From Escherichia phage EC.P1, in the sequence record PQ657772.1: 64,000 nt of DNA; one strand, 5' to 3'. The position numbers and the translations under genes were made by a program. This document shows positions 14,239 through 14,868 of this stretch, piece after piece (the stretch's first letter is position 1; each line of letters starts with the position of its first letter). The notes below the pieces were generated by a model. That model made no database searches and was not told where the DNA came from. It worked only from the letters and a program-made list of their open reading frames with translations.

Positions 14239-14245
14239 CAGTCGA

Positions 14246-14274
14246 ATTATACACGCTTCGCATGTCTAATTCAA
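14246..14274 (-). promoter_or_regulatory. sigma70-type promoter (TTGAAT-17-TATAAT)
   Basis: Read on minus strand upstream of 13642..14238. Confidence 0.45.
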
Positions 14275-14868
14275 CGAAAGTACTATGATTTGTTTTAATT
14301 AATATTGACGGGGTTTGCTTGAGCATATTTCATCCCCCCGCAGGGGAAAGAACAAAAAAAGTTTGACGCTGGTGGCCTTCACATAGTTCATATCACGAAT
14401 TCTCTTACGAGGCGAAAGCGGGTTGCTCTGTTTCTCTCTATCGCGGTTCTTGTAGCAACGGTCGTCGGTCTTAAACATCCCGACACATAATACAAATACC
14501 ATATGACCAGTACTTGTATTTGATTTCACGAATTTTGGACGCAACTATATTGTATAAATTACGACCGCAAATTTCTCATGAAATCTCCCTTAGATAATTG
14601 GTAAGGTGCGATCCTTATATGTCTATCGAGGAACTCTCTTTATCCTATTGGAGTTCTTTATACAGCCGCATTGCCGTGAGTGGTTCAAACTATGCCATCA
14701 TCTAACGGGTTTCATTTGCTGTTCGTACTGAAAGGACTACTCATCTACCCTCTACTTTTCGAGTGGATTAGGCTTTAATCATTTCCATATGGAACCTTTC
14801 AGGATTAAAAAAAGGCGACAACATATTCTGCTGTCACCTTACATTATATCATAAACTTATGGTCTGTC

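Follow-up and report, generated by a model that had tools for sequence, protein, structure and literature searches.

A multi-copy, pseudoknotted element of Rak2-like jumbo phages as a candidate large non-coding RNA

The non-coding gap and its flanking genes

The DNA analysed here, referred to as the window, is a stretch of 64,000 nucleotides from Escherichia phage EC.P1 (PQ657772.1). The element under study occupies a gap between an upstream gene at 14869..15717 and a downstream gene that the initial annotation had placed at 13642..14238. The two flanking open reading frames match different PHROG families near end to end (phrog_15199, 1-263 of 263; phrog_16210, 3-189 of 191), and these families may derive from the same phage group as compared here. 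The initial annotation had also located the promoter of the downstream gene within the interval. Indeed, the minus strand carries a sigma-70-like promoter at 14274-14246 (TTGAAT, 14274-14269; TATAAT, 14251-14246), followed by a 5'-UTR hairpin (14239-14219), the Shine-Dalgarno sequence AGGA (14194-14191) and an ATG (14187-14185). However, the gene most likely starts at this ATG and not at the GTG at 14238, as judged from the position of the Shine-Dalgarno sequence and from the length of the homologues (162-176 aa), so that the gap would extend over 14188..14868 (~681 nt). The segment 14185..14274 is context of the downstream gene and lies outside the RNA; a hairpin at the same 5'-UTR position covaries between the paralogues described below.

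By length, the interval ranks third among the stretches of the window without an ATG-initiated ORF of at least 70 aa. Since the two longer stretches are ordinary regions full of 50-91-aa genes and regulatory cassettes, this 0.68-kb gap is the longest true non-coding stretch of the window. Its GC content is 39.7% (41.4% in the core of the element), compared with 33.5% on average in the window (sd 3.5), which corresponds to the 94.5th percentile of 630-nt windows and is modest rather than extreme. The features initially described for this GC-richer island without a convincing ORF were all found in place, including the hairpin (CCCCCC-GCA-GGGG, 14334-14348) and the A-run (14354-14360), both read on the plus strand.

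Coding readings of the gap did not hold. The ORF at 14299..14544, which had been regarded with doubt from the beginning, has no match in Pfam or PHROG, and its frame is open only in Asteriusvirus copies, not in the orthologous copies of other genera. A protein gene or pseudogene was rejected because orthologues do not agree in the strand, frame or position of their longest open frames. A 40-aa protein starting from an ATG after the G-run (14326..14204) was also discarded, as its conserved motif does not vary at wobble positions and is found in different frames in different copies. In sequence records, the regions of the element are either unannotated or over-called as 'hypothetical proteins'.

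Searches for known RNAs were equally negative. Rfam 15 (4,227 covariance models, including GOLLD, ROOL, OLE, raiA, HEARO, RNase P, tmRNA, 6S, group I/II introns and riboswitches) gave 0 matches over the whole window and, at E up to 10, three chance-level matches only in 14100-15000; no Rfam family recurs over the element across 15 loci with diverse copies. ARAGORN found 0 tRNA or tmRNA genes in the 64-kb window, in agreement with the lack of tRNA signatures noted initially, and the covariance-model check suggested at that time ended without a match. A group I intron was ruled out: the P3-P9 core is unmatched by the covariance model, the flanks are separate complete PHROG families, and the element has its own promoter. 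We found no description of the RNA family in the papers searched.

An RNA family with diverged paralogues and a covarying fold

A blastn search of a phage collection matched 61 Rak2-like jumbo-phage records at four or five places each. In all of these records, the element is an RNA family of four or five anciently diverged paralogues per genome, complemented by rare copies in bacterial islands. Four or five dispersed copies are also compatible with a cis-acting genomic function. The copy studied here is matched by the profile HMM from 14848 to 14305 with E = 6e-122, a value that places its conservation far beyond chance; no second copy is present inside the 64-kb window. In phage 121Q, the profile HMM identified exactly four loci, all in unannotated gaps. 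One of them (326623-327141, plus strand) lies between gp594 and gp595, both on the minus strand, and is antisense to both neighbours. This 326.6-kb copy comes with a promoter and a terminator of its own, and the gene downstream of it is transcribed towards it. Paralogue classes are kept across genera at conserved syntenic positions, the neighbouring genes vary from paralogue to paralogue, and invariant blocks persist across genera at ~70% overall identity. The carriers are cultivable phages of E. coli, Salmonella, Klebsiella, Erwinia, Yersinia and Serratia.

The profile HMM gave 47+36 matches in the fetched viral, metagenomic and genomic loci. Copies in enterobacterial islands are rare and single; they were found in two of 5,426 E. 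coli genomes, in Serratia and in an Enterobacteriaceae MAG. These bacterial copies retain the promoter, the core, R1, the G+C hairpin and R2 (see below), the E. coli and MAG copies also retain the terminator, and some island copies adjoin integrases or recombinases. None of the proteins encoded by the E. coli island has a jumbo-phage homologue, and the search for a shared protein partner found none. Plasmids gave no match to the element. Regarding the searches themselves, a bare 14-mer scan of IMG/VR returned mostly chance matches and gapped two-motif patterns were used instead; with these, chance alone should give ~8 matches in the genome collection, and the profile rejected most of the GC-rich bacterial ones.

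Covariation was counted on a structure-blind MAFFT alignment (A2) of 36 distinct copies. In this alignment, the 75 pairs of 14 helices, two of which are pseudoknots, are 96.6% paired, compared with 77.2% in shuffled alignments and 39-44% when the partners are slid. Compensatory changes affect 53 of the 75 pairs (38.9 shuffled, 16-20 slid), and the covariation score is 0.507, which was reached by none of 500 shuffles (0.187 shuffled, 0.07-0.13 slid). RNAalifold predicted 61 pairs, 35 of them with compensatory changes, and the single-sequence MFE z-score is only -2.0. As G.U cells outnumber A.C cells by 204 to 23, the RNA strand is the minus strand. Altogether, the fold comprises at least 14 covariation-supported helices, two formally counted pseudoknots and long invariant single-stranded blocks.

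These data bear on the readings offered in the initial annotation. Its structured non-coding RNA is strongly backed by the covariation, by a private promoter in every copy and by the copy that is antisense to both neighbours, and the alignment across relatives that it recommended revealed both structure and conservation. Conversely, a remnant of a deleted gene is contradicted by the lack of a conserved frame and by the invariant nucleotide blocks and compensatory changes across genera. The strand, the multi-copy nature and the true extent of the element go beyond that annotation; on a minus-strand RNA, the A-run becomes a U-run located 5' of the hairpin.

Two conserved parts make up the element, a core of ~415 nt (14802-14387) and a 3' module (14375-14305), with all features on the minus strand. 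In the 5' domain (14728..14802), helix H1 (14802-14795 with 14735-14728) encloses H1a (14793-14783) and H2 (14771-14745, with a GAAAA loop); compensatory pairs amount to 7/8, 3/3 and 2/3, respectively. Domain H3 (14662..14722) contains H3a (14722-14718 with 14666-14662), which is 100% paired and shows compensatory changes in three of five pairs, H3b (14708-14705 with 14677-14674) and a variable inserted hairpin. Two near-invariant blocks, GAAACCCGUUAG (14713-14702) and CACGGCAAUGCGGC (14678-14665), fall within this domain. All six pairs of hairpin H4 (14631..14656) show compensatory changes. The adjacent H5/PK1 region (14563..14627) is misaligned by MAFFT and was read from the alignment by eye, with no formal pair count. 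It includes the near-invariant GAUAGACAUAU (14627-14617), hairpin H5 (UAAGG/CCUUA, 14617-14602), whose variants UGAG/CUCA and UUGAG/CUCAA suggest covariation by eye, an invariant AAGGGAG (14591-14585) and a small hairpin (14585-14570). The H5 loop GAUCGC (14613-14608) is complementary to GCGGUC (14568-14563), forming a candidate pseudoknot, PK1, for which covariation was likewise noted by eye (GAUCGC/GCGAUU, GAUAC/GUAUC, GUGCA/UGCAC and AUACU/AGUAU).

Module X (14529..14560) is a hairpin with a conserved ~17-nt loop (UACAAUAUAG-N5-GUC); it is found inside H11 in other paralogues, occurs twice in the E. coli copy and is missing from the 121Q 326.6-kb copy. Hairpin H7 (14489..14520) has 11 bp, ten of them with compensatory changes. 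A segment of its loop, GUCAUAU (14507-14501), pairs with AUAUGAA (14393-14387) in PK2, a pseudoknot or kissing interaction that is 99% paired, with compensatory changes in five of seven pairs. The sequence of this pair differs in each of the four 121Q paralogues, and the contact could be intra- or inter-molecular. Hairpin H8 (14463..14485; compensatory changes in 3/4 pairs) is followed by the 3' pseudoknotted domain (14387..14459), which holds the near-invariant blocks ACGACCGUUG and AACCCGC. There, PK3 (GUUGC, 14459-14455, with GCAAC, 14426-14422) crosses H9 (14445-14441 with 14398-14394) and H10 (within 14438-14414). Each of the three is 100% paired, with compensatory pairs in PK3 (3/5), H9 (4/5) and H10 (4/5), and also in H11 (14411-14402; 3/3).

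Promoter, predicted transcript ends and the 3' module

The whole predicted RNA gene would span 14305..14837 on the minus strand. Upstream lies a promoter of its own, TGAGAC-N14-TGATATAAT (14871-14843), which combines a -35-like element, TGAGAC (14866..14871), with an extended -10 box, TGATATAAT (14843..14851), detected by promoter scan. The -35-like element (family consensus TGAAAC) overlaps the TGA stop codon of the upstream gene and is conserved upstream of every copy, bacterial copies included. A sequence match to TGA(A/G)AC...TGnTATAAT lies ahead of every copy, with TATAAT or TATACT upstream of nearly all aligned ones. The same -35 motif, TGAAACG, has been described as the 'divergent RpoD-like' promoter motif of phages CBB and GAP32, and CBB uses this promoter class for DNA-synthesis genes (PMC5259590). 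Because the same promoter precedes the bacterial-island copies, host sigma-70 RNA polymerase probably makes the RNA without phage factors, in which case early synthesis would be expected. We infer a start at ~14837 (+/-2), 6-8 nt past the -10 box, and an end either at the U-run near 14354 (short form, ~483 nt) or through R2 (long form, ~532 nt).

A 12-bp hairpin followed by U7 (14807..14840), found by the terminator scan, serves the upstream gene as intrinsic terminator and, being downstream of the RNA's own -10 box, doubles as the 5'-terminal hairpin of the RNA. This arrangement is present in all syntenic copies; in other paralogues, the 5' hairpin either lacks the U-run or is absent. In the window copy, such a strong intrinsic terminator between promoter and core should cut off many transcripts.

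The 3' module begins with the repeat R1, CCACCAGCGUCAA (14363..14375), with the family pattern A-Y-C-A-N-Y-GUCA-R, followed by a U7 run (14354..14360), the A-run of the initial annotation. In other paralogues, a canonical terminator hairpin precedes the U-run, and in some of them R1 is the 5' half of its stem; the terminator scan detected none before the U7 run of the window copy. Next comes the G+C hairpin, GUUCUUUCCCC-UGC-GGGGGGAUGAA (14329..14353), initially reported as CCCC-GCA-GGGG. Its G-run is invariant and the opposite strand varies from C to U alone (64 G.U cells, zero compensatory changes), and its lower stem covaries in the Serratia copy (UUCUAU/GUAGAA). In 121Q, the hairpin motif is found at the four element loci and nowhere else. 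The module ends with R2, CAAACCCCGUCAA (14305..14317), a direct repeat of R1. The R1-R2 segment is variable in length (60-100 nt) and present in every copy.

R1 and R2 vary in concert. Among the 36 copies, they agree in all 36 at Y1 (MI 0.92, top partner of each column), in all 36 at Y2 and in 32 at R, and Serratia sp. 2723 carries GACA in both repeats. Mutual information for R1/R2 pointed to R1-R2 itself and to lineage-linked columns only. The best position for an intramolecular partner pairs in at most 14 of the 36 sequences, and no target was found elsewhere in the 121Q genome. Pairings of R1 with GAUGAGUAG and of R2 with the G-run were considered by eye and dropped, as neither covaries. 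This co-variation is not of the usual base-pairing kind and hints at mechanism; with no partner in the RNA or the phage genome, it leaves part of the element unexplained. Moreover, in several paralogues the G+C hairpin and R2 come after a canonical terminator and are still conserved to the same degree as the core, an unexpected pattern if the RNA simply acts in trans.

Proposed function and comparison with known systems

We consider it probable that the interval encodes a non-coding RNA of ~480-530 nt that stands alone, is highly structured, is transcribed leftward (minus strand) and acts in trans in the manner of GOLLD and ROOL. It is a candidate new large 'ornate' RNA, as nothing in Rfam 15 or the searched papers matches it. 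The transcript would end at the U-run after R1, where many paralogues have a canonical terminator, or beyond the G+C hairpin and R2 after read-through, and R1 and R2 may thereby provide short and long isoforms with an identical functional tail. Acting in trans, alone or with host factors, the RNA could be ribozyme-like, bind a ligand or protein, or self-assemble into a particle, as proposed for GOLLD and ROOL, and the paralogue-specific kissing pair PK2 might restrict folding or assembly to partners of the same paralogue. Only tentatively do we extend this proposal to a new autonomous functional RNA class of mobile elements, with a catalytic or self-assembling core and with R1/R2 as a paralogue-specific, programmable strand-transfer tail serving DNA-synthesis priming, template switching, or RNA processing or ligation.

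The main rival, which we regard as unlikely, is a primer RNA whose transcript forms a persistent RNA-DNA hybrid at the 3' module (U-run and invariant G6 run) and primes leading-strand synthesis; the identity of R1 and R2 would let the RNA tail re-anneal downstream. This primer variant is all that survives of the origin-like region proposed initially, itself no more than a possibility. Identical variation of direct repeats is what strand transfer or re-annealing would demand, and the invariant G-run, the U-run and the conserved segment past the terminator suit a DNA-related function. In addition, a promoter, recognised by sequence match, stands ahead of the non-coding transcript at every copy and belongs to the class that CBB uses for DNA-synthesis genes; the four or five dispersed copies per genome are co-oriented with the bulk of transcription, and islands and prophages could use an origin as well. 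However, selection acts on a pseudoknotted RNA fold of >400 nt, more than priming seems to need, and to our knowledge the T4 origin transcripts are not structured. No replication genes adjoin the RNA in the E. coli island, and the cumulative GC/AT skew gives no signal at the four 121Q loci, a weak test because skew follows transcription direction there.

A cis-acting 5' leader (a riboswitch, an attenuator or a processive antiterminator like HK022 put), in which R1 toggles between core pairing and the terminator stem, seems improbable. The 121Q 326.6-kb copy is convergent with its downstream gene, although the next gene is co-oriented in the window and in most syntenic copies. R1 does form the 5' half of the canonical terminator stem in several paralogues, and a terminator or U-run follows the core, but no alternative partner for R1 was found in the RNA. 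Furthermore, the downstream genes are unrelated among paralogues and have their own promoter, and the element exceeds known leaders in size by a factor of 3-5.

Lower still we rank a ribozyme that moves or processes itself (for example, an atypical intron or selfish RNA), with R1 and R2 as processing or ligation sites and the intervening 60-100 nt excised. Direct repeats do flank a dispensable-looking segment of variable length, but no copy lacks this segment. The complex pseudoknotted core with its invariant unpaired nucleotides would suit a ribozyme, and genes for an RNA ligase and a polynucleotide kinase are present in the phage; against this, ribozyme models, group I/II included, gave no match even with E raised to 10, and no gene is interrupted, the flanking ORFs being separate complete PHROG families. 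Multiple copies and the vicinity of island copies to integrases or recombinases suggest mobility, whereas the conserved syntenic positions of the paralogues indicate that the element is not recently mobile. Finally, the view that no RNA function exists, and that the DNA is a decayed gene or itself serves protein binding or recombination, might fit a region that records leave unannotated or over-call as 'hypothetical proteins', but is hardly credible in view of the 53/75 compensatory pairs, the strand-specific G.U tolerance, the lack of a conserved frame and the invariant blocks at ~70% overall identity across genera.

As far as we know, few large RNAs with complex conserved folds are found in bacteria and phages, and every one studied (RNase P, group I/II introns, tmRNA, OLE, GOLLD, ROOL, raiA, IscB/TnpB guide RNAs) gave new biochemistry or architecture. 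The paralogue series of the element constitutes natural mutational data, and the rare chromosomal version in E. coli adds experimental appeal. In each Rak2-like annotation, the element also accounts for four or five gaps that lacked an explanation or were spuriously called as 'hypothetical proteins'. Its novelty is that of a family without a known match; large ornate phage RNAs as a phenomenon have precedents, and no new mechanism is demonstrated.

Several known systems share part of these features. Like leader and antiterminator RNAs (riboswitches, T-box, HK022 put), the element is a structured RNA followed by an intrinsic terminator, with a stem overlapping the conserved R1; unlike them, it is much larger, has one paralogue without a co-oriented downstream gene, and no alternative pairing was found. 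The group I introns of T-even phages are also several hundred nt long, pseudoknotted, phage-borne and sometimes several per genome, whereas the element lies between two complete genes with its own promoter and terminator and matches no model. ColE1 RNA II, of ~550 nt, is an R-loop primer that requires correct folding, and T4 oriF and oriG are promoter-plus-R-loop origins, of which there are several per T4 genome. The element resembles these in being a promoter-driven non-coding transcript with G-rich and U-rich 3' elements, a likeness by description; it has no antisense regulator, and its fold is far more elaborate, pseudoknotted and conserved.

Within the wider Rak2-related group, jumbo phage PA5oct has four abundant ncRNAs defined by RNA-Seq (ncRNA001-004, 236-619 nt; PMC7318152), which show that such phages express long ncRNAs. 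Comparison of its ncRNA001 and ncRNA002 with the element family gave a best E of 1.3 (nhmmer --max), and the signature motifs are absent from both. The closest parallel to the trans-acting RNA favoured here is provided by GOLLD and ROOL, large 'ornate' RNAs of phages and prophages with cryo-EM structures (PMC12286853). The element groups with them by analogy, not homology, through its large multi-helix covarying fold with pseudoknots (14 helices, 75 pairs, 53 compensatory), and it matches neither model by sequence or structure. Shared traits are the size class (0.5-0.8 kb), many helices with pseudoknot or kissing contacts, possibly inter-molecular, extreme conservation of unpaired nucleotides, carriage by phages or prophage-like islands, and no associated protein. 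GOLLD and ROOL, from Lactobacillales and rumen phages, often lie beside tRNA genes, whereas there is no tRNA in the 64-kb window, and in 121Q the tRNA cluster (72.7-78.0 kb) is separate from the nearest copy (90.3 kb). Unlike both, the element resides in jumbo myoviruses infecting Gammaproteobacteria, with four or five paralogues per genome, and carries a tail composed of R1, the U-run, the G+C hairpin and R2.

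The non-coding gap and its RNA family

The sequence belongs to a Rak2-like jumbo myovirus, in a part where genes are read on the minus strand. Over the query, it shares 99.6-99.7% identity with its nearest relatives, the Escherichia phages WPEC5, Ecwhy_1 and fEgEco12; 121Q and PBECO4, of the genus Asteriusvirus, are 91-95% identical to the window. The initial annotation had described a GC-richer island lacking a convincing ORF at 14239-14868. This observation is real, and it exceeds what was first suspected. The island has a G+C content of 39.7% versus 33.5% for the window (94.5th percentile), the reported hairpin and A-run are both in place, and no credible ORF follows the stop of 14869..15717 before the next gene begins. 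The ORF 14299..14544, already considered doubtful, has 81 codons, no family match and a frame that is lost in the orthologous copies of other genera. The promoter assigned to gene 13642..14238 does lie in the interval (TATAAT, 14251-14246), but the GTG start at 14238 is probably wrong. ATG 14187, preceded by an AGGA Shine-Dalgarno sequence, is the probable start, since the homologues of this gene have 162-176 aa and 14239-14219, downstream of the TATAAT box, is a conserved 5'-UTR hairpin. Hence, the non-coding gap extends to about 681 nt, more than any other genuine gap of the window; two longer 'ORF-free' stretches hold 50-91-aa genes and regulatory cassettes.

At least eight regulatory cassettes were observed at 55700-62830 (repeat families D4, D5, D8, D14, D16 and D18), each with a minus-strand promoter (AAGTACTTGCA..N..TGTATAAT) beside a G+C hairpin. 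Terminator-like AAAGGGACTGACCGGAGTCAATCCCTTT units separate the small genes there, and the cassettes are similar to the promoter-stem-loop cassettes known from T4-type phages. Small paralogous genes that have diverged from each other form tandem arrays at 34000-36400, 42500-43800, 46500-48400 and 49200-54700 (families D1-D3, D7, D9-D13, D15, D17, D19 and D20; periods of ~210-480 nt); such arrays typify early regions in phages of this kind. In addition, 12571-13104 is the orthologue of 121Q gp418, named 'ribonucleotide reductase A' in the 121Q and 7t3 records. Its product has PHROG matches to cytidylyltransferases (E = 4e-54) and a weak Pfam match to the cytidylyltransferase-like family, and the label looks like a propagated mis-annotation.

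Regarding conservation in relatives, sensitive blastn matched the interval to 61 phage records, every one a Rak2-like jumbo phage, with hosts in Escherichia, Salmonella, Klebsiella, Cronobacter, Erwinia, Serratia, Yersinia, Pectobacterium and 'Xanthomonas'. Positions ~60-540 of the query are kept at ~70% identity, in four to five places per record. A profile HMM, built from copies gathered in IMG/VR with gapped two-motif patterns, gave exactly four matches in the whole 121Q genome (90.3, 192.8, 247.5 and 326.6 kb; E = 1e-119 to 8e-90), all on the plus strand in unannotated gaps, and none in the unannotated gap of ~2 kb at KM507819.1 135194-137161. The only copy in the window (14848..14305, minus strand; E = 6e-122) is orthologous to the 192.8-kb copy of 121Q. 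About a dozen copy classes are common to several genera, indicating that the paralogues are old and lie at conserved positions.

The covariance-model scan proposed in the initial annotation matched no family of Rfam 15, even at E up to 10 and across 15 diverse copies. The absence of tRNAs was borne out by an ARAGORN search of the window, which was also empty for tmRNA, and both candidates were rejected. An intron within a gene was discarded because the flanking ORFs matched as separate genes, and a protein-coding element because there was neither a family match nor a kept frame. We found no description of these RNAs in the literature searched, and a large survey of viral csRNAs reports motifs of only 29-151 nt. 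The window element is a member of an undescribed RNA family, carried by jumbo phages and by enterobacterial islands, whose members are large and contain multiple pseudoknots.

Fold and putative transcription unit

We found TGA(A/G)AC, followed after ~14 nt by TGnTATAAT, upstream of every copy. In the window, the -35-like TGAGAC (14871-14866, minus strand) overlaps the stop codon of the upstream gene, and the -10 region TGATATAAT (14851-14843, minus strand) is a promoter match by sequence. This is the same type as the 'divergent RpoD-like' promoter of CBB and GAP32, with the -35 element TGAAACG (PMC5259590). A canonical intrinsic terminator lies 3' of the ~415-nt conserved core (14802-14387) in many paralogues. 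At 326.6 kb in 121Q, the copy is equipped with a promoter as well as a terminator and lies between two genes on the opposite strand; hence, it is neither a leader nor a 3' UTR. From this arrangement, we infer that each copy is its own transcription unit. Of the window copy, the 5' hairpin (14840-14807, minus strand) is also the strong intrinsic terminator of the upstream gene, which lies 3' of the RNA's own -10 box and thus serves both. This terminator between the -10 box and the core is kept in all syntenic copies, and its U-run is missing in other paralogues. In the window copy and its orthologues, transcripts from the RNA's promoter should often stop there, after ~35 nt.

For 36 distinct copies aligned by MAFFT without regard to structure (A2), RNAalifold returned 61 pairs, 35 of them with compensatory changes, and a scan for stacked covarying columns added the pseudoknots PK2 (hairpin loop to single strand) and PK3 (H-type). 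The combined model, counted on A2, has 75 pairs in 14 helices. Paired cells amount to 96.6%, versus 77.2% after column shuffling and 39-44% when partners were slid by 1-3 columns, and the covariation score is 0.507, versus 0.187 (none of 500 shuffles reaching 0.507) and 0.07-0.13, respectively. Compensatory changes affect 53 of the 75 pairs (38.9 pairs after shuffling, 16-20 after sliding), which contradicts a non-RNA explanation, including the deleted-gene remnant considered at first. Moreover, G.U exceeds A.C in the modelled pairs (204 versus 23), which places the fold on the strand given by the promoter, that is, the minus strand of the window. The structured non-coding RNA, another of the initial options, is thus backed by covariation, by the excess of G.U over A.C and by a promoter at every copy. 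Altogether, our results show that the RNA fold is pseudoknotted, conserved, strand-specific and present in multiple copies, each with its own promoter, and the element is very probably a functional structured RNA gene.

The loop of hairpin H5 pairs with a downstream segment (PK1) in four covarying variants, seen by eye in a region that MAFFT misaligns, and the PK2 sequence pair differs in each of the four 121Q paralogues. Long unpaired blocks that are nearly invariant (GAAACCCGUUAG, CACGGCAAUGCGGC, GAUAGACAUAU, AAGGGAG, ACGACCGUUG and AACCCGC) lie between helices. Module X, a hairpin with a conserved 17-nt loop (UACAAUAUAGAUCCGUC) at 14529-14560, differs in location among paralogues; there are two in a copy from E. 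coli (locus L242, ~9270-9300 and ~9430-9460) and none in the 326.6-kb copy of 121Q. This is a natural relocation of a structural module. Shifting, doubled or missing modules are typical of peripheral elements of large RNAs.

The 3' module and its repeats

The 3' module (14375-14305) begins with R1 (14375-14363; A-Y-C-A-N-Y-GUCA-R), located 3' of the core, and a linker of 0-70 nt that leads to a U-run; in many paralogues a canonical terminator is found here, with R1 sometimes as its 5' arm. After the U-run come a strong hairpin, UUCAU-C4-6-UGC-G6-AUGAA, and, ~12 nt beyond, R2 (14317-14305; A-Y-C-N-Y-GUCA-R). The G-run of the hairpin is invariant and the opposite arm changes only from C to U, which points again to RNA. 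Both the hairpin and R2 are conserved despite their position beyond the terminators.

R1 and R2 (A2 columns 646-658 and 734-746) are direct, non-complementary repeats bracketing the U-run and the G+C hairpin. At Y1, the repeats match each other in all 36 copies (T/T in 24, C/C in 12), and the two columns are each other's best mutual-information partner (0.92). The repeats also agree at Y2 in 36/36 copies and at the last base in 32/36, and GACA replaces GUCA in both alike in the chromosomal copy of Serratia sp. 2723. Neither the RNA itself nor the 121Q genome yielded a pairing partner for the repeats. By eye, the likeness reaches ~30 nt upstream of each repeat, which gives the tail the look of an ancient tandem duplication whose halves have been maintained in concert. 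The co-change suggests a step needing two identical tails: strand transfer, same-ended isoforms or a shared trans partner.

Bacterial copies and proposed mode of action

Profile-filtered gapped-motif scans of 185,579 species genomes and of JGI metagenomes together yielded 36 further true copies, most on jumbo-phage-like contigs and three in bacterial assemblies. The chromosomal copy of Serratia sp. 2723 (L178 5341-5899) stands straight after a large serine recombinase. That of Serratia sp. L9 (L176 3513-3874), also chromosomal, is a remnant that lacks its 5' part and is fused to an N-terminal fragment of a recombinase, with IS and T6SS Hcp genes nearby, and that of an Enterobacteriaceae MAG (L169 6424-7025) is flanked by thiM and a CI-like repressor. 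Moreover, an identical full-length copy is present in 2 of 5,426 complete E. coli genomes (E = 1e-111). In LR-29-1, it occupies an unannotated 1.4-kb gap (L242 8992-9581, NZ_AP027515.1 ~3479000-3479600) of an integrase-bearing island inserted beside ffs, which carries an IS3-disrupted integrase, DUF4326, DUF488, dual-OB and resolvase genes. The full-length copies from Serratia 2723, the MAG and E. coli all retain the promoter, the core, R1, the hairpin and R2, and the last two also have a canonical terminator. We found no plasmid copies and no jumbo-phage homologues of the E. coli island proteins. Given these kept bacterial copies and the lack of such homologues, the RNA is cargo that travels with mobile elements and does not depend on a dedicated phage protein from an adjacent gene.

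The promoter is the same in the bacterial islands, so host RNA polymerase would transcribe the RNA, which may accumulate as a form of ~0.48 kb that stops at the U-run, as a form of ~0.53 kb produced by read-through, or as both. We favor, with moderate confidence, a stand-alone RNA acting in trans. Its main rival, a primer RNA like ColE1 RNA II or those of T4 origins, would explain why the copies are dispersed, why the segment past the terminator is conserved and, possibly, why R1 and R2 are identical, and we consider it unlikely. Cumulative GC/AT skew, which in 121Q tracks the direction of transcription, gave no signal at the four loci. A cis-acting leader is improbable, as it fails on the 326.6-kb copy of 121Q with its opposite-strand neighbors. 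A self-processing mobile ribozyme, lacking model support, is very improbable.

Jumbo phages of this kind may generally carry long ncRNAs, though heterogeneous ones: the abundant, RNA-seq-defined lncRNAs 001 and 002 of the related jumbo phage PA5oct (L162; MK797984.1 8263-8498 and 21951-22401) have no detectable likeness to this family. As for the trans-acting RNA that we propose, its mode of action would be comparable to that of GOLLD and ROOL, working as a catalytic, binding or self-assembling particle.
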